Virus genome (UHGV): UHGV-1508137
Length of the DNA stretch: 28,536 nt
DNA from: a virus
Reading direction: 5' to 3' (one strand)
A program made the translations under genes and the position numbers. The notes under the pieces are model-generated. The model searched no databases, was not told where the DNA came from, and saw only the letters and a list, made by a program, of their open reading frames with translations. Numbering within the stretch: the stretch's first letter is position 1; every line of letters begins with the position of its first letter. Of the stretch, positions 47 to 18,811 are shown in pieces.

Positions 47-150
47 GCTTTTTTATACTAAGTTGGCATTATAAAAAAGCATTGCTTATCAATTTGTTGC
101 AACGAACAGGTCACTATCAGTCAAAATAAAATCATTATTTGATTTCAATT
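47..150 (+). other. attL: attL (B-O-P'): 15-bp common core gcttttttatactaa at 47-61 followed by P' arm with Int arm-type sites (aggtcactat, cagtcaaaat)
   Basis: Exact lambda core sequence read directly; P' arm sequence continues into the int 3' end as in lambda. Confidence 0.85.
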
Positions 151-1205
151 TTGTCCCACTCCCTGCCTCTGTCATCACGATACTGTGATGCCATGGTGTC
201 CGACTTATGCCCGAGAAGATGTTGAGCAAACTTATCGCTTATCTGCTTCTCATAGAGTCTTGCAGACAAACTGCGCAACTCGTGAAAGGTAGGCGGATCC
301 CCTTCGAAGGAAAGACCTGATGCTTTTCGTGCGCGCATAAAATACCTTGATACTGTGCCGGATGAAAGCGGTTCGCGACGAGTAGATGCAATTATGGTTT
401 CTCCGCCAAGAATCTCTTTGCATTTATCAAGTGTTTCCTTCATTGATATTCCGAGAGCATCAACATGCAATGCTGTTGGGATGGCAATTTTTACGCCTGT
501 TTTGCTTTGCTCGACATAAAGATATCCATCTACGATATCAGACCACTTCATTTCGCATAAATCACCAACTCGTTGCCCGGTAACAACAGCCAGTTCCATT
601 GCAAGTCTGAGCCAACATGGTGATGATTCTGCTGCTTGATAAATTTTCAGGTATTCGTCAGCCGTAAGTCTTGATCTCCTTACCTCTGATTTTGCTGCGC
701 GAGTGGCAGCGACAGGGTTTGTTGTTATATGGCCTTCAGCTATTGCCTCTCGGAATGCATCGCTCAGTGTTGATCTGATTAACTTGGCTGACGCCGCCTT
801 GCCCTCGTCTATGTATCCATTGAGCATTGCCGCAATTTCTTTTGTGGTGATGTCTTCAAGTGGAGCATCAGGCAGACCCCTCCTTATTGCTTTAATTTTG
901 CTCATGTAATTTATGAGTGTCTTCTGCTTGATTCCTCTGCTGGCCAGGATTTTTTCGTAGCGATCAAGCCATGAATGTAACGTAACGGAATTATCACTGT
1001 TGATTCTCGCTGTCAGAGGCTTGTGTTTGTGTCCTGAAAATAACTCAATGTTGGCCTGTATAGCTTCAGTGATTGCGATTCGCCTGTCTCGGCCTAATCC
1101 AAACTCTTTACCCGTCCTTGGGTCCCTGTAGCAGTAATATCCATTGTTTCTTATATAAAGGTTAGGGGGTAAATCCCGGCGCTCATGACTTCGCCTTCTT
1201 CCCAT
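135..1205 (-). CDS. int: integrase (tyrosine recombinase), 356 aa
   Basis: ORF translation matches lambda Int over its full length (MGRRRSHERRDLPPNLYIRNNGYYCYRDPRTGKEF...), same length as lambda Int. Confidence 0.97.
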   Translation of the reverse strand: MGRRRSHERRDLPPNLYIRNNGYYCYRDPRTGKEFGLGRDRRIAITEAIQANIELFSGHKHKPLTARINSDNSVTLHSWLDRYEKILASRGIKQKTLINYMSKIKAIRRGLPDAPLEDITTKEIAAMLNGYIDEGKAASAKLIRSTLSDAFREAIAEGHITTNPVAATRAAKSEVRRSRLTADEYLKIYQAAESSPCWLRLAMELAVVTGQRVGDLCEMKWSDIVDGYLYVEQSKTGVKIAIPTALHVDALGISMKETLDKCKEILGGETIIASTRREPLSSGTVSRYFMRARKASGLSFEGDPPTFHELRSLSARLYEKQISDKFAQHLLGHKSDTMASQYRDDRGREWDKIEIK

Positions 1206-1401
1206 TTCTGATCCTCTTCAAAAGGCTACCTGTTACTGGTCGATTTAAGTCAACCTTTACCGCTGATTCGTGGAACAGATACTCTCTTCCATCCTTAACC
1301 GGAGGAGGGAATATCCTGCACTCGCGTACCCATCGACGAACTGTTTCAAGGCTTCTTGGGCGTCGCTGGCGTGCGTTCCACTCCTGAAGTGTCAAGTACA
1401 T
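1183..1401 (-). CDS. xis: excisionase, 72 aa
   Basis: MYLTLQEWNARQRRPRSLETVRRWVRECRIFPPPVKDGREYLFHESAVKVDLNRPV... matches lambda Xis; overlaps int 3' end as in lambda. Confidence 0.95.
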   Translation of the reverse strand: MYLTLQEWNARQRRPRSLETVRRWVRECRIFPPPVKDGREYLFHESAVKVDLNRPVTGSLLKRIRNGKKAKS

Positions 1402-1430
1402 CGCAAAGTCTCCGCAATTACACGCAAGAA
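1395..1430 (-). promoter_or_regulatory. pI promoter region with CII-type TTGC-N6-TTGC motif (ttgcgtgtaattgc on minus strand) overlapping xis start
   Basis: Reverse complement of 1414-1427 reads ttgcgtgtaattgc immediately upstream of the xis ATG, as in lambda pI. Confidence 0.6.
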
Positions 1431-1499
1431 AAAACTGCCATCAGGCGGCTTGGTGTTCTTTCAGTTCTTCAATTCGAATATTGGTTACGTCTGCATGTG

Positions 1500-1700
1500 C
1501 TATCTGCGCCCACAGCATCCAGTGGTCATAGCAGTCGCTGATGTTCTCGGCTTCGATAACTCTGTTGAATGGTTCTCCATTCCATTCACCTGTGACTCGG
1601 AAGTGCATTTATCATCTCCATAAAACAAAACCCGCCGTAGCGAGTTCAGATAAAAGAAATCCTCGTCAGTGCGAGGATGCTGTTCATTGCTGCTATACAC
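1500..1700 (-). CDS. hypothetical small protein (66 codons, GTG start)
   Basis: Open frame only; start codon is GTG with a gagag motif upstream; no recognisable motif. Weak call. Confidence 0.3.
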   Translation of the reverse strand: MYSSNEQHPRTDEDFFYLNSLRRVLFYGDDKCTSESQVNGMENHSTELSKPRTSATAMTTGCCGRR

Positions 1701-1850
1701 TTTTTTGCTCTCAACGTAAGCGGTAGCCCATTCTGTTGGGTTGGTGCAGTTGCTTTTAGGAAATGCTATTTACCCCTTAAATGTCGGCTGAAAGAGCTAA
1801 AATCCATGCAAAAAATTTACGCAATTTTGTGTATTATTGTGCAGTAAGTA

Positions 1851-2453
1851 ATGAGCTATTTTCTGCGCAAAAAATGGATGGTAAATTTGTCCGGGTCAGG
1901 AAAAATTTTATGGGCGCTAAACATGAAAAAAGATTCGTATCCTTATTTGATTTGCATGACAGTTTCAGGGCTGATCTTTATTTTCCTTTTCTTCTGGTGG
2001 CGGGCAGATATCTACAGGGTCACGTTTCTTAATCAGAGTATATCCCACTATTACATTCTGTTTAGCATGGGAATAGCTTTTCTGTTATCTCTGTTTTGGG
2101 TTAAGAAGGGGATAGTAAAACAAAGCGGCTGGAAGAGTCTGTCAGCATACCTTAAGGTTTATGCAGGGATGTGCATATTTGCTGGATTTTTTCTGATTAT
2201 ACCCCTTACGACACTAACTTATTTTTTGCCTGGAGAGACATCGTCTTATGTTGCACCGTATCGGTATACTTCCGGTAGTTCAAAAAGTTGTTCTGGAGCT
2301 GAGGTGGATGACCCCGATCTACATGAGAATATTCGCATTTGCTATCCGTATGGCAATTATGAGTACGATAATATTATCTATGTTGAAAAGAAAATTAATA
2401 TATTAGGTGCGGTAGTGACATATGCACAGACCGCGCGTGATGATACTGAATGA
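1851..2453 (+). CDS. hypothetical integral membrane protein, 200 aa (alternative starts at 1878 or 1923), 3 predicted TM helices plus ~80-aa C-terminal soluble region
   Basis: ORF on the strand opposite to int/xis/exo; visibly AT-rich; hydrophobic segments LICMTVSGLIFIFLFFWW, YYILFSMGIAFLLSLFWV, VYAGMCIFAGFFLIIPLTTL. Confidence 0.6.
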   Translation: MSYFLRKKWMVNLSGSGKILWALNMKKDSYPYLICMTVSGLIFIFLFFWWRADIYRVTFLNQSISHYYILFSMGIAFLLSLFWVKKGIVKQSGWKSLSAYLKVYAGMCIFAGFFLIIPLTTLTYFLPGETSSYVAPYRYTSGSSKSCSGAEVDDPDLHENIRICYPYGNYEYDNIIYVEKKINILGAVVTYAQTARDDTE

Positions 2454-2487
2454 TATAGTATATAGCGGGCAAGTTTTAGTTAATTTA

Positions 2488-2525
2488 TCGAGGTAATATA
2501 ATTTACCTCGACTCGTTTGTTCTGG
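2488..2525 (+). terminator. hairpin (9-bp perfect stem tcgaggtaa/ttacctcga) followed by U-rich tract; putative terminator after the membrane-protein gene
   Basis: Inverted repeat read directly from sequence; downstream ctcgtttgttct. Confidence 0.4.
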
Positions 2526-2663
2526 TATTAATATTTCGCTTTACGACCGATTTTTATCTGATGATATCATGCGGTTTTCATATACTGACTTACTGTCTTT
2601 TCTCCGTTAGCGATTTTCTCCTGCTCAGCGATGATTTTATCTTTGGCTTCTAGTTAATTTCGC

Positions 2664-2885
2664 TCACTTCGAACCTCTCTGTTTACTGATAAGCTCCAGA
2701 TCTTCCTGGCAACTTGCACAAGTCCGACAACCCTGAACGACTAGGTGTCTTCGTTCATCTATCGGATCGCCACACTCACAACAATGAGTGGCAGATATAG
2801 CCTGGTGGTTCAGGCGGCGCATTTTTATTGCTGTGTTGCGCTGTAATTCTTCAATTTCTGATGCTGAATCAATGATGTCTGCCAT
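2664..2885 (-). CDS. TraR/DksA-family C4 zinc-finger protein, 73 aa (same family and size as the TraR-like Orf73 reported for lambda)
   Basis: C-x2-C-x17-C-x2-C motif (CCECGDPIDERRHLVVQGCRTCASC), size and position in early-left operon. Confidence 0.8.
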   Translation of the reverse strand: MADIIDSASEIEELQRNTAIKMRRLNHQAISATHCCECGDPIDERRHLVVQGCRTCASCQEDLELISKQRGSK

Positions 2886-2934
2886 CTTCCATTAATCCCT
2901 GAATTGTTGGTTAATACGCTTGAGGGTGAATGCG

Positions 2935-2961
2935 AATAATAAAAAAGGAGCCTGTAGCTCC
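2935..2961 (-). terminator. intrinsic terminator-like hairpin (ggagc/gctcc) followed on the minus strand by ttttttatt
   Basis: Inverted repeat plus U-tract read on the minus strand between two early-left ORFs. Confidence 0.45.
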
Positions 2962-2983
2962 CTGATGATTTTGCTTTTCATGT

Positions 2984-3265
2984 TCATCGTTCCTTAAAGA
3001 CGCCGTTTAACATGCCGATTGCCAGGCTTAAATGAGTCGGTGTGAATCCCATCAGCGTTACCGTTTCGCGGTGCTTCTTCAGTACGCTACGGCAAATGTC
3101 ATCGACGTTTTTATCCGGAAACTGCTGTCTGGCTTTTTTGATTTCAGAATTAGCCTGACGGGCAATGCTGCGAAGGGCGTTTTCCTGCTGAGGTGTCATT
3201 GAACAAGTCCCATGTCGGCAAGCATAAGCACACAGAATATGAAGCCCGCTGCCAGAAAAATGCAT
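2984..3265 (-). CDS. hypothetical early-left protein, 93 aa (possible alternative start giving 71 aa from MTPQQENALR)
   Basis: Open frame in operon orientation; in-frame stop immediately upstream of the first ATG; weak RBS for either start. Confidence 0.5.
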   Translation of the reverse strand: MHFSGSGLHILCAYACRHGTCSMTPQQENALRSIARQANSEIKKARQQFPDKNVDDICRSVLKKHRETVTLMGFTPTHLSLAIGMLNGVFKER

Positions 3266-3275
3266 TCAGTGGTTG

Positions 3276-3629
3276 TCATACCTGGTCTCTCTCATCTGCT
3301 TCTGCTTTCGCCACCATCATTTCCAGCTTTTGTGAAAGGGATGCGGCTAACGTGTGAAATTCTTCGTCTGTTTCTACTGGTATTGGCACAAACCTGACTC
3401 CAATTTGAGCGAGGCTATGTGCCATCTCGATACTCGTTCTTAACTCAACGGTAGATGCTTTGTGCATACAGCCCCCCCATTTATTATTTATCTCCTCAGC
3501 CAGCCGCTGTGCTTTCAGGGGATTTCGGATTACAGAAAGGCCGGGAAATACCCAGCCTCGCTTTGTAACGGAGTAGACGAAAGTGATTGCGCCTACCCGG
3601 ATATTATCGTGAGGATGCGTCATCGCCAT
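3276..3629 (-). CDS. small early protein, 117 aa; appears to be lambda orf60a and orf63 in one continuous frame (internal Met gives the 63-aa [10 protein letters not shown]... product)
   Basis: C-terminal 63 residues from an internal Met; N-terminal part abuts/overlaps the exo 3' end as lambda orf60a does. Confidence 0.6.
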
Positions 3630-4300
3630 TGCTCCCCAAATACAAAACCAATTTCAGCCAGTGCCTCGTCCATTTTTTCGATGAACTCCGGCACCATCTC
3701 GTCAAAACTCGCCATGTACTTTTCATTCCGCTCAATCACGACATAATGCAGGCCTTCACGCTTCATGCGCGGGTCATAGTTGGCAAAGTACCAGGCATCT
3801 TTTCGCGTCACCCACATGCTGTACTGCACCTGGGCCATGTAAGCCGACTTTATGGCCTCGAAACCACCGAGCCGGAACTTCATGAAATCCCGGGAGGTAA
3901 ACGGGCATTTCAGCTCAAGGCCATTGCCGTCACTGCATAAACCATCGGGAGAGCAGGCGGTGCGCATACTTTCGTCGCGATAGATGATCGGGGATTCAGT
4001 AACATTCACGCCGGAAGTGAACTCAAAGAGGGCTCTGGCGTCGTTCTCGTACTGTTTTCCCCAGGCCAGCGCCTTAGCGTTAACTTCCGGAGCCACACCG
4101 GTGCAAACCTCGGCAAGCAGGGTGTGTAAGTAGGACATTTTCATGTCAGGCCATTTCTTTCCGGAGCGGGGTTTTGCTATCACATTGTGAACTTCTGAAG
4201 CGGTGATGACGCCGAGCCGTAATTTGTGCCACGCATCATCCCCCTGTTCGACAGCTCTCACGTCGATCCCGGTACGCTGCAGGATAATGTCCGGTGTCAT
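3620..4300 (-). CDS. exo: lambda exonuclease (Red-alpha), 226 aa
   Basis: [43 protein letters not shown]... matches lambda Exo; 4-nt overlap with bet. Confidence 0.97.
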
Positions 4301-5082
4301 GCTGCCACCTTCTGCTCAGTGGCTTTCTGTTTCAGGAATCCAAGAGCTTTCACTGCTTCGGCCTGTGTCAGTTCTGACGATGCTCGAATGTCGCGGCGAA
4401 ATATCTGGGAACAGAGCGGCAATAAGTCGTCATCCCATGTTTTATCCAGGGCGATCAGCAGAGTGTTAATCTCCTGCATGGTTTCATCGTTAACCGGAGT
4501 GATGTCGCGTTCCGGCTGACGTTCTGCAGTGTATGCGGTATTTTCGACAATGCGCTCGGCTTCATCCTTGTCATAGATACCCGCAAATCCGAAGGCCAGA
4601 CGGGCACACTGAATCATGGCTTTATGCCGTAACATCCGTTTGGGATGCGACTGCCACGGCCCCGTGATTTCTCTGCCTTCGCGGGTTTTGAATGGTTCGC
4701 GGCGGCATTCATCCATCCATTCGGTAACGCAGATCGGATGATTGCGGTCCTTGCGGTAAATCCGGCATGTACAGGATTCATTGTCCTGCTCAAAGTCCAT
4801 GCCATCAAACTGCTGGTTTTCATTGATGATGCGGGACCAGCCATCAACGCCCACCACCGGAACGATGCCGTTCTGCTTGTCAGGAAAGGCGTAAATTTCT
4901 TTCGTCCACGGATTAAGGCCGTACTGGTTGGCGACGATCAGCAATGCGATGAACTGCGCATCGCTGGCATCGCCTTTAAATGCCGTCTGGCGAAGAGTGG
5001 TGATCAGTTCCTGTGGGTCGACAGAATCCATGCCGACTCGTTCAGCCAGCTTCCCAGCCAGCGTTGCGAGTGCTGTACTCAT
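4297..5082 (-). CDS. bet: Red-beta single-strand annealing protein, 261 aa
   Basis: [66 protein letters not shown]... matches lambda Bet. Confidence 0.97.
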
Positions 5083-6578: not shown

Positions 6579-7476
<898 letters not shown>

Positions 7477-7586
7477 CTGGATTCTCCTGTCAGTTAGCTT
7501 TGAGTAACGCGCCGTGATGCTTATCCCCACGGTTGCTGTCTTGCAGCTGCATTTCGCGCTACTCAAAGCTTTCTGCTTTGAATGCT

Positions 7587-7903: not shown

Positions 7904-8524
7904 TTAATGCTGGGGAGTGATTTTTTTGTTGTCTGTTGGCTGGGTATTTTGTGGCGGCGCTTGCAAAGTGGAAGGCTGTTGCAAAGGTGCGTGGTCTGAC
8001 TTTAAAGCTGATACCAGCCCGGGAATCGCAACTATTACAGCGATAATGACACTAAAAATGGCTAATCGTATAGAAATACCCGACTGAACACCACTAATTG
8101 CGGTATTAACCCCTGTTATTTGTCCTTGAATTCCTTCGAATCTCCCATTAATTGCTTTTAAATCGCCAGCAGCGCTATCCATTTTTCCATCGATCTTGGA
8201 CGATAGAGAGCTTATGGCCGCATTAAGTGATGCAAATTGGACATTAACGCTTTCACGAGATAGAGCCATGTCAGCCCTAATGGAAGAAGCAATAGACTCC
8301 ATCTCTGCTTTATTAGCAGCTAAGCGAGCATCAAGTTCCTCTCTGCTGATCGTTCCCACTTCTTCCTCCGTTTGTGGCGGTTTTATGTAATTATTTTGCA
8401 CCTTGGTGGGAGAATTATCAAATTCAGCCTCAAAATCGGAACCGCCAACAACCTTCAACCTCCGGCTTTCAGATATGTTGGTGTCTTGCTTTCCATGATT
8501 ATTTAAATTGCTGTCGTCACTCAT
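7904..8524 (-). CDS. hypothetical tail-anchored membrane protein, 206 aa (acidic N-terminus, long amphipathic/coiled-coil region, single C-terminal TM helix LAIFSVIIAVIVAIPGLVSAL, Pro/Gln-rich tail); second gene of the cI operon at the rexB position
   Basis: ATGA start/stop overlap with the upstream gene; AT-rich; not related to RexB as I recall it. Confidence 0.75.
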   Translation of the reverse strand: MSDDSNLNNHGKQDTNISESRRLKVVGGSDFEAEFDNSPTKVQNNYIKPPQTEEEVGTISREELDARLAANKAEMESIASSIRADMALSRESVNVQFASLNAAISSLSSKIDGKMDSAAGDLKAINGRFEGIQGQITGVNTAISGVQSGISIRLAIFSVIIAVIVAIPGLVSALKSDHAPLQQPSTLQAPPQNTQPTDNKKITPQH

Positions 8525-9005
8525 AATAGCTCTACGGTGAAAAATGATTCATTTTTATGAAGTTCATTTTTAGGGTCTTCATTATCTTGCAATCTCCCTA
8601 TAACACTATACAGCCCTTTAGCTGGGACCCTAATTTCTTTCAATGTTACTATTACCTGTCCGCCAACCCCTGTTTCAAAATGGCTATCTTTCGTATCGAT
8701 GAAAAGTGAAACTGATTCCGAAGATCCGTCAGGGAATTGAATTTCCTCACCTTTTTTTATAATTAGGTGCGCGGGGATTACCATAATACCCAAATTATAT
8801 CTTGAATTTGGTTTCAACCCGATCATACCAACCCTGAAATCAATTGATAGCCGCGCAGGAAATTCATTGCATGTAAAATTAAGCGTCGGTTGGTTGGGTT
8901 CTTCGCTGCTATCAAATGGGGTTATAAAAGATATTCTTTCTAAATTAAGTGCCATAAATTCTCCTGCATCGCTGTATGCTCTACGAGCATCTCGGCGACT
9001 TATCA

Positions 9006-9006
<1 letters not shown>
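8521..9006 (-). CDS. hypothetical soluble protein, 161 aa; first gene downstream of cI at the rexA position
   Basis: ATG overlaps the cI stop (tgATGa); AT-rich relative to cI; no TM segment; not related to RexA as I recall it. Confidence 0.75.
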
Positions 9007-9722
<716 letters not shown>

Positions 9723-15267: not shown

Positions 15268-16350
15268 TTAGAACTGGTAAACCATACCTACAGCAACGAT
15301 ATCATCGGTAGCAACGCCAGATGCTTTCGTGAAATCGCTCTTATCAATCAGGTTGATTTTGTAGTCAACAAAAGTGGACATATTTTTGTTGAAGTAATAG
15401 GTTGCACCTACATCAACATATTCAACCAGGTCCTGATCACCCCAAACACCCAAGTCTTTTCCTTTAGAATGCAGGTAAGCAACGGATGGACGCAGGCCGA
15501 AGTCGAACTGATATTGTGCAACAGCTTCGAAGTTTTGTGCTTTGTTGGCAATATGGTTATTACCAAAAACAGTCATGTTCTGGGTTTCAGAATAGGTGGT
15601 GGCCAGATAGATGTTGTTCGCATCATATTTCAGACCAGCTGCCCATACTTCAGCATTTTGACCAGAAGCATTCAGACCGTTGTTACCGTAGATAACCTGA
15701 TTATTAGTGCGATCAGATTTAGCATAGGTTGCACCCACGCCGAATCCTTCATACTCATAAGTAGTTGAGAAACCGAAACCATCGCCATTAGCTTCAGTTA
15801 CTTCATTTCGGTCATTTTTGCCCTGATACTGAGCTGCAAAGTTCAGGCCATCAACCAGACCAAAGAAGTCGTTGTTACGATAAGTTGCAACACCTGTGGT
15901 GCGACCAGTCATGAATACATCTGTTTGGGTCCAGGTATCGCCACCGAATTCTGGCAGAACGTCAGTCCACGCACCGATGTCGTATGCTACACCGTAGTTA
16001 CGGCCGTAATCGATTGAGCCGTAGTCACCGAATTTCAGGCCTGCAAATGCAAGACGGGTTTTGTCTTTGGAGGAACCTTGAGATTCAGCGCGGTTGCCTT
16101 TGAATTCATATTCCCACTGACCGAAACCAGTCAGTTGATCGTTGATTTGGGTTTCACCTTTGAAGCCAAGACGGGCATAAGTAGTATCACCATCATCTGC
16201 ATCATTAGAGGAGAAGTAGTGCTTAGCATTAACTTTCCCGTACAGATCCAGCTTGTTACTGTCTTTATTATAAATTTCAGCTGCCTGAGCAGACATCGCC
16301 ATCAGTACTGATGCAGCTACAGCAGAAATTGCCACTGTTAATTTTTTCAT
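15268..16350 (-). CDS. nmpC: general outer-membrane porin (OmpC/OmpF/NmpC/Lc family), 360 aa with signal peptide
   Basis: [23 protein letters not shown] signal peptide, C-terminal ...VGMVYQF beta-barrel terminal Phe; synteny with DLP12 quuD-nmpC-essD. Symbol assigned by synteny only. Confidence 0.85.
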
Positions 16351-18289: not shown

Positions 18290-18811
18290 ATGAATATCGT
18301 GCCACTTAATTACAAAGGTGAAATTGTCAGTTTCAACACTGATGGTTGGATCAACGTCACAGGTGTTGCTGAGAGATTTGGGAAACGCATTGATAACTGG
18401 ATGCGTTTGGCAGAAACGCTTGAATACGTTCGTGCTTTAGACGAAGCGTTGACCGGGAAAGAATCTCAAATTTTACATCCCTCACAATCGAGGTATGTAA
18501 AAACCAGCAAGGCACGAAAGGACAGGGGTGGTGGTACGTGGCTACATCCAAAACTTTCAGTTGCATTTGCCCGTTGGTGTGATGCTCGTTTTGCTGTGTG
18601 GTGCGACCTGCACATTGATAGTCTGCTTCGCGGTGAACTGACTGAGCAGCAGAAATATGAGCAAGCATGTCGCATTCGCGATGACCGGAAATCAAAAGCC
18701 AGCCATGGGGCAAGAGAGATGGCTCGCTGGCGATGGGATAAGCCGGTTATTGAAGCAAATGTTGAGTACTGGCGCGAGCAACTGCAGTTGACTCTCGATA
18801 TCGCGTGCTGA
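18290..18811 (+). CDS. KilA-N domain protein, 173 aa
   Basis: N-terminal region (FNTDGWINVTGVAERFGKRIDNWMRLAETLEYV) fits the KilA-N/APSES-like fold pattern; good RBS ggtaggtaaa. Confidence 0.7.
   Translation: MNIVPLNYKGEIVSFNTDGWINVTGVAERFGKRIDNWMRLAETLEYVRALDEALTGKESQILHPSQSRYVKTSKARKDRGGGTWLHPKLSVAFARWCDARFAVWCDLHIDSLLRGELTEQQKYEQACRIRDDRKSKASHGAREMARWRWDKPVIEANVEYWREQLQLTLDIAC

Follow-up and report, generated by a model that had tools for sequence, protein, structure and literature searches.

A self-contained accessory cassette in place of lambda ea8.5/ea22 encodes a candidate envelope protection factor of an unnamed membrane-protein family

The virus genome UHGV-1508137, analysed here as one stretch of 28,536 nucleotides (the window), is a lambda-like prophage integrated at att-lambda in which positions 1679-2651 constitute a self-contained accessory ("moron") cassette. 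The cassette gene encodes a 176-aa membrane protein that is a good candidate for a prophage-encoded envelope protection factor. This is a gene of the classical phage 434, of about one sixth of complete Escherichia coli genomes, including O157:H7, and of P2-like prophages of Salmonella and Klebsiella, and it belongs to no described family. It connects two accessory hotspots, the lambdoid exo-xis region and the gpA-gpQ interval of P2.

The substituted segment and its borders

The segment and its immediate neighbours are arranged as follows.
1441-1608, minus strand: orf55 (phrog_676, E = 5.5e-40)
1628-1678, minus strand: two tandem leftward intrinsic terminators (tL4-type) at the left border of the substitution, within the lambda-homologous flank
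1679-2651: substituted AT-rich segment, 973 bp, GC ~0.38, in place of lambda 29356-30379 (ea8.5 + ea22)
2664-2885, minus strand: TraR/DksA-type zinc-finger gene, the right-hand neighbour (PF01258, E = 2.5e-8)

Alignment to lambda by blastn yields a 98.7% match for window positions 47-1678, a 97.6% match for 2652-4372 and zero match in between. Lambda homology thus ends at 1678 and restarts at 2652, just before the stop codon of the TraR/DksA-type gene, and 973 bp stand for the 1024 bp that hold ea8.5 and ea22 in lambda. The GC content is 0.38-0.39 in 1677-2530, against 0.45-0.49 in the flanks. The original prediction of an AT-rich, compositionally foreign and independently organised insert that replaced ea8.5/ea22 amid near-lambda flanks is borne out by these exact breakpoints, by the base composition and by the locus alignment. 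The low GC content is a property of the gene in every prophage or mobile-element copy examined (0.38-0.44), while the carrier flanks range from 0.43 to 0.54.

At the left border, the tandem terminators fold with a dG of -20.5 kcal/mol (z = -3.6), and the record M60848 marks t-L4 at the same site. The adjoining orf55 is annotated in lambda, 434, mEp332 and O157 and was absent from the original prediction. A divergent 66-codon ORF with a GTG start (1500-1700, minus strand), which had been proposed there, is spurious: it overlaps orf55 out of frame, crosses the two leftward terminators and has no family match.

The conserved reading frame and its start

Two parts of the plus-strand open reading frame can be distinguished.
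1851-1922, plus strand: first 24 codons of the 200-codon ORF, a non-coding 5' extension (in-frame stops in relatives)
1923-2453, plus strand: conserved CDS, inner-membrane protein of an unnamed family, 176 aa plus stop

A plus-strand ORF that runs against the int/xis/exo operon at 1851-2453 had been predicted, and its presence holds up, since the open run of 201 codons is longer than that in any of 2000 shuffles matched for composition, for which the mean is 78 and the maximum 181. Its predicted length of 200 codons has to be corrected. The first residue of all homologues corresponds to Met25 of the 200-codon ORF (ATG 1923) and the extension contains in-frame stops in strain E2 (L005) and in P2-like copies (L020/L030); the gene therefore comprises 176 codons, 1923-2453. 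Between the window and phage 434, the extension shows two nonsynonymous and no synonymous changes, and the predicted -10 element falls inside it. Besides the 200-codon start at 1851, a 188-codon start (TTG 1887) is ruled out by stops or frameshifts in relatives, and a 56-codon plus-strand ORF annotated by others at 1677-1847 is likewise interrupted in relatives and lacks conservation as a coding frame. ATG 1923 is preceded by a weak Shine-Dalgarno sequence (-2.4 kcal/mol).

The reading frame is unbroken in all loci examined. Across homologue pairs, dN/dS amounts to 0.06-0.16 with dS values of up to ~2 and, judged by this substitution pattern, the cassette gene is under purifying selection.

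Control region and terminator

The following signals flank the coding sequence.
1789-1922, plus strand: conserved upstream (regulatory) region of ~135 nt, from the locus alignment
1816-1843, plus strand: three TTGTGCA-like repeats with 10-bp spacing, degenerate in the window and perfect in the Salmonella P2-like copy
1858-1875, plus strand: near-perfect palindrome ATTTTCTGCGCAAAAAAT, a candidate operator that overlaps a -35-like TTTTCT (1859-1864)
1879-1887, plus strand: TGgTAAATT, a predicted extended -10 element that lies 17 nt 3' of TTTTCT
2488-2511, plus strand: terminator-like hairpin with a 9-bp stem and a 6-nt loop, followed by CUCGUUUGUU

In the last 115 nt upstream of the gene, identity reaches 78% with the E. 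coli P2-like copy and 70.5% with the Salmonella copy, while third-codon positions stand at only 61% and 48%, respectively; this stretch is thus better conserved than synonymous sites. The motif TGnTAA(A/T/G)TT of the extended -10 element is kept in eight of nine aligned prophage or chromosomal-islet loci, as read from the alignment. From this element, transcription is predicted to begin near 1894, which would give a 5' UTR of ~28 nt; this putative 5' UTR folds no better than shuffled sequences.

Further upstream, the three repeats are found with their 10-bp spacing in the Salmonella P2-like copy (L007 4894-4926), one exact copy of the repeat is present in the window (1836-1843) and another TTGTGCA-like copy lies upstream of the gene in locus L045. 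The repeats at 1816-1843 take in a TTGT-N6-TTGT sequence, annotated as a CII site in the record of phage 434. Sites of the pI, pRE and paQ type present TTGC-N6-TTGC straddling the -35 element in a phage that encodes a lambda-type CII, whereas the sequence found here is TTGT-N6-TTGT. The degenerate pattern is seen seven times across the window, where 7.2 occurrences are expected by chance. Conservation of the 10-bp repeat is strongest in P2-like prophages, which are not known to carry a lambda CII. Because of this conservation, the wrong bases and the chance frequency, a CII-dependent promoter is rejected.

The palindrome was detected by a repeat search in the window and in L020, and its T-run/A-run dyad is kept in other loci. 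Operators of Mlc/NagC (ROK) regulators are described as quasi-palindromes in which the arms are A/T-rich and TT/AA occupies positions +/-5,6 (PMC4288165). The palindrome at 1858-1875 agrees with this rule, which carries little information, and is similar in its left half to the operator of ptsG; it is no more than a lead towards a possible ROK-type site.

Downstream of the gene, the predicted perfect 9-bp-stem hairpin is indeed present, with a stem at 2488-2496/2503-2511, a dG of -12.9 kcal/mol (z = -3.0) and a T-rich tail. Strain E2 retains this hairpin with a G-U change, and the E. coli P2-like copy retains part of it.

Following the definition of Hendrix and colleagues, a moron is said to be an autonomous accessory cassette of a temperate phage. 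The segment is absent with sharp edges from a near-identical relative (lambda) and deviates in nucleotide composition (GC 0.38 vs 0.487 for the entire window). A terminator of its own is provided by the hairpin at 2488-2511, the U tract of which is interrupted and the strength of which is uncertain. For a putative promoter of its own, the evidence consists of the conserved extended -10 element, of the upstream conservation and of a hint from one transcriptome by way of a putative locus-tag match; a generic promoter scan does not call the element at 1879-1887.

Topology and fold of the protein

Four parts of the protein are recognised from hydropathy and an AF2 model.
1944-2000, plus strand: TM1, aa 8-26 (hydropathy 2.09; helix in the AF2 model)
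2040-2102, plus strand: TM2, aa 40-60 (hydropathy and AF2 model)
2172-2228, plus strand: TM3, aa 84-102 (hydropathy and AF2 model), preceded by a K-rich loop
2229-2450, plus strand: C-terminal domain of ~70-74 aa, modelled as a five-stranded OB-like beta-barrel and predicted to be periplasmic

The three hydrophobic helices and the ~80-aa soluble tail of the original prediction are both recovered, the tail at ~74 aa. The AF2 model has a pLDDT of 81 for the entire protein and of 91 for the C-terminal domain, next to which a strand from loop 1 is placed. Loop 2, ahead of TM3, contains five lysines and no acidic residue and is predicted to be cytoplasmic, the C-terminal part has a net charge of -6, and this positive-inside pattern yields an N-in/C-out prediction. 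In the resulting topology model, the N terminus is predicted to be cytoplasmic, and loop 1 and the OB-like barrel to face the periplasm. The only residues that are invariant in 27 diverse members are two cysteines of the C-terminal domain (codons 2289-2291 and 2340-2342), and one disulfide probably locks the barrel. As conserved residues of a catalytic type are missing, the protein should function by binding a partner on the periplasmic side of the inner membrane. A bacterial lipoprotein was considered and rejected: a search for [LVI][ASTVI][GAS]C near the N terminus found no lipobox, and Cys11 is preceded by L-I and becomes S, P or T in homologues.

Homology and literature searches

For the 176-aa protein, profiles of Pfam, NCBIfam, PADLOC and PDB sequences returned nothing above noise, and the remote-homology and fold searches that the original prediction had suggested as a check found no characterised relative. 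Among the defence-protein models of PADLOC-DB v2, no family matched at E <= 1, and the sole match in PHROGs is the unannotated phrog_1416. A search of 1.84e9 proteins yielded 61 representatives of the family, and all homologue annotations read "hypothetical" or "transmembrane protein", with no experimental function. The phage 434 genome paper is silent on the cassette gene, and no paper in the literature names ECs0804. A search of Rfam over 1400-2800 gave no structured RNA at E <= 1.

Two candidate relationships within phages were discarded. Comparison with the SieA family (types A-C) gave a BLASTP E value of 12 and an hhalign probability of 0.3%, and the family alignment lacks the motif FxRYPxEAxxFNK; nor is there similarity between the cassette protein and the sieB-position ORF of the window.

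Where the gene occurs

The same gene, with DNA identities of 98.5-99.8%, is found in phage 434 (CPT_434_36), mEp332 (XSB40999), phage 2B8 and O157:H7 Sakai (ECs_0804), likewise between orf55 and the TraR-like gene, and the partial "ORF-22+" of M60848 (1990) is this gene as well. These four records call it a "putative membrane protein" or "hypothetical protein" and state no function. In phage 434, xis and orf55 are separated by an additional ORF114 of 440 bp. These records carry versions of 188 or 200 aa and the 56-aa upstream ORF, neither of which is supported by other copies. Overall, the gene is present in 916 of 5426 complete E. coli genomes (~17%).

Homologues with 55-78% identity are located in P2-like prophages of E. 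coli, Salmonella and K. michiganensis between gpA and the portal gene gpQ, convergent with gpA (P0039, P0043, P0048 and P0054), while the window copy belongs to a lambdoid prophage. The gpA-gpQ locus of P2 is an experimentally defined defence hotspot (PMC9122126, PMC9519451). Two family members, WP_000711112 and WP_000711113, appear as "hypothetical" in Rousset Table S5, and the family accessions in PMC9122126 are confined to the locus-list file and absent from the table of evaluated systems. An NB-ARC STAND NTPase is one of the neighbours in the P2 hotspot. In one P2-like hotspot the gene is adjoined by an ead/Ea22-like pseudogene, and Ead_Ea22 is common cargo there; since Ea22-like genes travel with the cassette gene, the two hotspots appear to share a cargo pool.

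The gene is intact in degraded prophages, namely O157 Sp3/CP-933K (int frameshifted, bet truncated) and a KplE1-like remnant, and a further copy resides on a plasmid- or ICE-like element. Prophage carriers include both siphovirus and myovirus types. Chromosomal copies are found in six Enterobacter species (E. cloacae complex), where the locus is syntenic, has a host-like GC content of 0.52 and is ordered as LysR, the gene, and then a convergent gene for a HAMP-GGDEF protein and a gene for an AI-2E transporter. Chromosomal islets carry the gene in Cedecea, Klebsiella and Citrobacter, in the last of these between rstA and rstB, and it is also found directly downstream of ptsG; two chromosomal copies adjoin ptsG-type and bglF-type genes. 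Across ~12 contexts, no consistent partner gene is observed. ParM/StbB neighbours appear to be resident in one P2 subtype and are also seen on one plasmid-like element.

The recurrence in the P2 hotspot, in degraded prophages and on the plasmid- or ICE-like element, together with purifying selection, agrees with the typical-cargo character that had been proposed for the gene. Distribution and selection fit accessory cargo rather than a lytic-cycle gene.

Possible functions

The reading that is tentatively preferred is that of a lysogen-expressed accessory gene that would benefit its host at the envelope, most likely via superinfection exclusion. Here, the gene's own sigma-70 promoter (extended -10 element, 1879-1887) would drive its expression in the lysogen, and antisense early transcription would lower this expression upon induction. 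The protein would interfere with incoming phage DNA or ejection proteins as they cross from the periplasm through the inner membrane, a transit that is blocked by the unrelated proteins P22 SieA, T4 Imm and HK97 gp15. Strong exclusion of lambda-type entry is unlikely because lambda and 434 are classically heteroimmune and cross-plate; much of this work used lambda imm434, which is without the cassette. The mixture of phage types and the chromosomal copies in Enterobacter would not be the pattern expected of an exclusion factor aimed at the carrier's relatives, and the syntenic branch in six Enterobacter species counts against a purely anti-phage role.

This chromosomal branch, which is inherited vertically, is among the arguments for a factor that serves lysogenic conversion or host physiology and has nothing to do with phage entry, an alternative that is considered rather unlikely but deserves attention. 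Such a factor could possibly protect against periplasmic toxins (orphan immunity to a colicin, bacteriocin or T6SS effector), confer stress tolerance or modulate a PTS permease, sensor kinase or diguanylate cyclase. The chromosomal islets in Citrobacter, Cedecea and Klebsiella, the copy downstream of ptsG and the carriage by unrelated phage types and by a plasmid- or ICE-like element point in the same direction. As a small polytopic protein with a predicted periplasmic disulfide-bonded domain, the cassette protein would resemble known bacteriocin immunity proteins. However, no toxin gene adjoins the gene in the ~12 contexts examined, these contexts have no partner gene in common and the prophage copies lie in loci dominated by anti-phage cargo. 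An abortive-infection membrane effector of the RexB or SieB kind, which would depolarise or permeabilise the cell upon phage sensing, is improbable. As an opposite-strand membrane gene within the leftward early operon, the cassette gene has a placement like that of sieB in lambda and P22. Defence systems often use single transmembrane effectors (PMC9122126). Yet neither a sensor partner nor a conserved second gene accompanies it, its conserved part is a periplasmic globular domain and not of the pore type, neither a PADLOC model nor the ORF at the sieB position in the window resembles it, and a toxic protein would be odd as an Enterobacter core gene.

The occupation of the exact ea8.5/ea22 slot could point to a replacement for exo-xis functions that biases the lysis-lysogeny decision, as has been reported for Ea8.5 and the exo-xis region; the latter affects lysogenisation and induction (PMC10789677). 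This is judged slightly more improbable still, given that the gene lies on the strand opposite to the early operon with promoter-like and terminator-like signals of its own, that its product is a membrane protein, unlike those of lambda exo-xis, and that the same gene occurs in P2-like prophages, in degraded prophages incapable of development and in chromosomes. Least probable is a hitch-hiking or decaying ORF without current function. The O157 copy sits in a prophage remnant retained for the effectors nleC, nleH1 and nleD, and expression is at best low in one transcriptome (by a putative locus-tag match), but a dN/dS of ~0.1 over deep divergence, the intact frame and the conservation of the start codon, the two cysteines and the upstream region speak against decay.

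A bolder version of the envelope hypothesis, regarded as a long shot, is that of a new exclusion/immunity family coupled to glucose-family PTS permeases, in which the promoter palindrome would serve as a ROK-type (Mlc/NagC) operator and the periplasmic OB-like domain would cap or alter a PTS EIIC-type inner-membrane port through which phage DNA enters. If true, the blocker would be co-regulated with the port that it guards, and the mixed-morphotype carriage, the ptsG- and bglF-type neighbours and the status as an Enterobacter core gene would be accounted for. If a role as an exclusion or immunity factor is correct, the gene would represent an envelope defence that is compact, needs one gene only and has a periplasmic domain amenable to structure solution, and it could partly account for the resistance of common lysogens to phages or bacteriocins; if there is no such role, it is one further conserved prophage membrane protein without assigned function.

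Comparison with known systems

A small beta-barrel on a membrane anchor is not unique to this family. Proteins of DUF1093 (B. subtilis BSU39620, PDB 3npp; B. cereus BcR97A, PDB 2k5q) likewise present a five-stranded small barrel, and NfeD-type proteins are built similarly from TM segments and a C-terminal OB domain, with an NfeD-like protein among the weak BFVD matches. For the OB domains of both groups, there is no significant sequence or profile match and no strong structural match. Ea8.5 and Ea22 of lambda share the genomic slot with the cassette protein, but they are not homologous to it, are encoded on the opposite strand and are cytoplasmic rather than membrane proteins (PMC10789677). 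With the cargo of the P2 hotspot, which includes old, tin and many newer defence systems (PMC9122126, PMC9519451), homologues in three genera share the exact locus; in contrast to those systems, the cassette encodes one small membrane protein that lacks an enzymatic domain and matches no defence model, and it is not one of the systems assayed in the two studies. A functional parallel to the preferred exclusion reading is SieA of P22, a prophage-encoded inner-membrane superinfection-exclusion protein that has its own promoter in the lysogen (PMC10883804). Exclusion by the SieA family is characterised by a block of DNA injection that leaves adsorption unaffected. Both are prophage-encoded inner-membrane proteins with three predicted TM helices, with a length of ~165 aa for SieA. 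They differ in that the conserved motif FxRYPxEAxxFNK of SieA is predicted to be cytoplasmic, whereas the conserved domain of the cassette protein is predicted to be periplasmic, and in that SieA sits between genes 16 and 9 in P22-like phages only, whereas the cassette gene lies between xis/orf55 and exo.

Cassette borders and prophage context

The window is a lambda-like prophage whose genes stand in the order of the integrated state. Bases 1-46 are non-lambda and lambda homology begins at the att core (blastn; window 47 corresponds to lambda 27724), which places the left end at attL of a prophage at att-lambda and not in a free phage genome. The genes and signals around the membrane gene are listed below; small exo-xis ORFs lie between the TraR/DksA-like gene and exo.

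135-1205, minus strand, int
1183-1401, minus strand, xis
1441-1608, minus strand, orf55 (phrog_676, E = 5.5e-40)
1628-1647 and 1659-1678, minus strand, two tandem leftward terminators adjoining the left breakpoint
1923-2453, plus strand, membrane gene (176 aa)
2664-2885, minus strand, TraR/DksA-like gene
3620-4300, minus strand, exo

Identity to lambda is 98.7% over 47-1678 and 97.6% over 2652-4372 (blastn), and the exact breakpoints at 1678 and 2652 delimit 973 bp (1679-2651, the cassette) where lambda has 1024 bp with ea8.5 and ea22. This bears out the replacement of ea8.5/ea22 proposed in the original prediction. The AT-richness that it described is also borne out: GC content is 0.35-0.41 over 1700-2650, whereas the flanks have 0.45-0.55 and the whole window 0.487. 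The tandem terminators are named t-L4 in a 1990 phage 434 record, and the 9-bp-stem hairpin (2488-2511) proved real (dG -12.9 kcal/mol, z = -3.0), followed by a T-rich tail on the plus strand. The cassette is organised as an autonomous unit with a predicted promoter. Over 1400-2700, identity is 99.8% with phage mEp332 and 98.5% with phages 434 and 2B8; the remainder of the window is that of a mosaic mEp332 relative (86% covered at 97.4%).

Several further differences and accessory genes were observed in this prophage. At ~1427, between xis and orf55, phage 434 holds an additional 440 bp encoding ORF114 (114 aa), absent from the window, mEp332 and lambda, which makes this position, next to the cassette, another small site of indel-type cargo. 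At 3276-3629 (minus), one 117-codon ORF combines DUF1317 (orf60a-type, aa 3-57) and DUF1382 (orf63-type, aa 55-114), whereas lambda, 434, mEp332 and O157 encode them in two distinct genes that overlap; the ORF seems to be a fusion through a frame change. A second opposite-strand ORF of the leftward early operon (6657-7160, plus; 167 aa, phrog_1244, function unannotated) lies directly upstream of the N gene (7153-7566, minus; Pfam N36 match), at the sieB position of lambda, and has no relationship to the 176-aa membrane protein. Immediately downstream of the cI repressor gene (9006-9719), at the rexAB position of lambda, overlapping ORFs of 206 and 162 aa (7904-9009, minus; phrog_5820 and phrog_5893, both function unannotated) are probably lysogen-expressed cargo; mEp332 instead has a single 345-aa 'T2SS GspM containing protein' there. 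A complete NmpC/OmpD-like porin gene (15268-16350, minus; Porin_1, E = 3.6e-152), on the opposite strand downstream of a gene annotated as antitermination protein in mEp332, is a classic lysogenic-conversion accessory gene. After the lysis genes, a KilA-N domain ORF (18290-18811, plus; 173 aa, phrog_129) has no annotated counterpart at that place in mEp332, the closest phage, and the window is longer there.

Coding sequence

The plus-strand ORF 1851-2453 is present as claimed, and its open run of 201 codons exceeds that of every one of 2000 shuffles (mean 78, maximum 181), so it is not due to chance in DNA of such composition. Its proposed start at 1851 did not hold: all 16 aligned homologues start at query Met25, within a shared MKKxSYP motif, and in-frame stops interrupt the 24 codons before this Met in strain E2 as well as in the P2-like E. 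coli copies. Between the window and phage 434, these 24 codons show two nonsynonymous and no synonymous changes, against one and four in the 176-codon core. The gene is therefore 1923-2453 (176 aa). The same upstream stops exclude the TTG 1887 start of the phage 434 record. Values of dN/dS of 0.06-0.16 (Nei-Gojobori; window copy against copies from E. coli, Salmonella and others, dS to ~2) indicate a real gene under selection. The 66-codon GTG ORF (1500-1700, minus), which had been read as a divergent ORF, overlaps orf55 out of frame, spans both terminators and matches no family; orf55 is the real gene there. The 56-codon plus-strand ORF 1677-1847, annotated in phages 434 and mEp332, is probably not a gene: its start and frame are lost in E2 and it is broken in P2-like copies.

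Topology, fold and family

The three predicted hydrophobic helices correspond to TM segments at aa 8-26, 40-60 and 84-102 (hydropathy). The TM2-TM3 loop carries five Lys and no acidic residues, and net charge over the last 74 residues is -6, so that the positive-inside rule predicts a cytoplasmic N terminus and a periplasmic C-terminal domain. AlphaFold2, run with the family alignment, gave an overall pLDDT of 81 (blocks 75-94 past residue 30) and a model that combines three long helices with a short loop-1 strand and a five-stranded beta domain; the domain reached 91 when modelled alone. Among 27 members, down to 17% identity, only C123 and C140 are invariant (176-aa numbering), which fits a putative structural disulfide in the periplasm; W26, G104, G125 and G162 are near-invariant, and no conserved polar catalytic-type residue was found in this alignment. 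Pfam, NCBIfam, PADLOC and PDB sequence profiles yielded no match, and PHROGs yielded phrog_1416, an unannotated family covering just the C-terminal 88 residues. When 1.84 billion representatives were searched exhaustively with a profile, just 61 clusters were returned. Complete members measure ~165-200 aa and share this architecture; the others are fragments, with the exception of one 3074-aa protein with ten separate matches to the Cys-containing stretch. Membership in the SieA family was rejected after direct comparison with SieA.

Upstream signals

Over the 115 nt that precede ATG 1923, identity is 78% with the E. coli P2-like copy and 70.5% with that of Salmonella, above the values at third-codon positions (61% and 48%), and this stretch is therefore under constraint. 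The elements found here are:

1816-1843, three TTGTGCA-like units at 10-bp spacing, degenerate in the window and perfect in one Salmonella copy
1858-1875, near-perfect palindrome ATTTTCTGCGCAAAAAAT, overlapping the putative -35 region
1859-1864, TTTTCT, 17 nt upstream of TGgTAAATT
1879-1887, plus strand, TGgTAAATT, the window form of TGnTAA(A/T/G)TT

The TGnTAA(A/T/G)TT element is kept in eight of nine aligned prophage or chromosomal-islet loci, and from this alignment TGgTAAATT and TTTTCT can be read as a putative extended -10 sigma-70 promoter with a transcription start near 1894; a generic promoter scan did not list the element at 1879-1887. The T-run/A-run dyad of the palindrome is retained in other loci with differing centres. 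The CII site labelled in the phage 434 record was rejected, as the window holds 7 TTGY-N6-TTGY matches against 7.2 expected and the pI/pRE sites are TTGC. It is further disfavoured by the 10-bp-spaced repeat being best kept in P2-like phages, which are not known to carry lambda CII. The weak Shine-Dalgarno sequence at ATG 1923 suggests low expression. In lambdoid copies the gene runs against the leftward early transcripts, and in P2-like copies it converges with gene A, so that lytic transcription would be expected to oppose it.

Occurrence and genomic contexts

The cassette travels among accessory hotspots of temperate phages that are unrelated to one another, and among other elements. It occurs in 916 of 5426 complete E. 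coli genomes (95-100% identity), chromosomal in all. The O157:H7 copy is ECs_0804 of prophage Sp3 (CP-933K, O-island 36), an element at att-lambda that lacks an immunity region and in which int is frameshifted and bet truncated, and in strain E2 the gene persists in a KplE1-like remnant adjoining torI. More diverged homologues come from E. coli (78%), Salmonella (71% and 59%) and Klebsiella michiganensis (55%). Each belongs to a P2-like prophage, where it sits between portal gene Q and replication gene A and converges with A. Experiments have defined this locus as the P2 defence hotspot, occupied in P2 by old and tin (PMC9122126, PMC9519451). The hotspot neighbour of the Klebsiella copy is an NB-ARC STAND NTPase, and a YafO toxin gene adjoins the copy in one Salmonella locus. 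Rousset et al. labelled WP_000711113 and WP_000711112 at the P2 hotspot as 'hypothetical', with StbA, Plasmid_stab_B and Ead_Ea22 genes as usual companions, and the two are absent from the table of tested systems (PMC9122126). [quoted passage not shown]

Outside these phages, 14 nt separate the remote member P0153 from a preceding integrase gene (L043 429-11541, JGI 3300011538) in an element whose further cargo (ParM/StbB, ArdC, CbtA toxin, a phospholipase-like gene, ProQ/FinO) is of plasmid or ICE type. A 42-45% identical branch with a host-like GC of 0.52 belongs to the chromosome of six Enterobacter species, in a syntenic arrangement (LysR, the gene, then convergent HAMP-GGDEF and AI-2E transporter genes), and further copies occupy chromosomal islets of Klebsiella sp., Cedecea and Citrobacter. 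Whatever the carrier, a GC of 0.38-0.44 is kept in every examined prophage copy and in the Cedecea islet copy. A 3.5-kb contig (JARKOR010000073.1) with a 100% identical gene copy and a lambda-type exo is filed under a 'Candidatus Nanosynbacter' metagenome-assembled genome, almost certainly as a binning contaminant.

Possible functions

The cassette DNA has been in records for decades, as ORF-22+ in 1990 and as 'putative membrane protein' in 2022, and the literature and annotations give no function, family name or experiment for the 176-aa protein. Our best guess, a tentative one, is that it may be a superinfection-exclusion protein acting on DNA entry. The vertically inherited Enterobacter branch, the occurrence in both siphovirus-type and myovirus-type prophages and the classical cross-plating of lambda and 434 all count against a narrow anti-phage role, and because of them a role in the host envelope or in immunity, although somewhat less likely, stays a serious rival. 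Lower in likelihood are abortive infection, the absence of any function and a part in phage development of the Ea8.5/Ea22 kind (PMC10789677).

A speculative link to PTS permeases, very improbable in our view, comes from an adjacency noticed post hoc. Two chromosomal homologues adjoin glucose-family PTS EIIC genes, one directly downstream of ptsG on a gut-metagenome contig (L045 5333-7510), where one copy of the ATTGTGCA motif remains upstream of the homologue, and one divergent from a bglF-like EIIBCA gene (L014 2882-5543). PTS permeases are inner-membrane entry ports for some siphophages. DicB is reported to shield E. coli through inhibition of inner-membrane receptor proteins (PMC6832061). 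The palindrome 1858-1875 follows the sole invariant rule of Mlc/NagC operators, TT/AA at positions +/-5,6 (PMC4288165), a rule low in information, and its left half resembles the ptsG operator (PMC13482132).

The 176-aa protein is a reasonable candidate for a defence or exclusion screen. Prophage proteins of known function with a like build and genomic behaviour are mostly superinfection-exclusion proteins acting on DNA entry. T4 Imm and HK97 gp15 are further superinfection-exclusion proteins. Another example is P22 SieA (PMC10883804). The 176-aa protein represents a new, unnamed family in a familiar kind of element.
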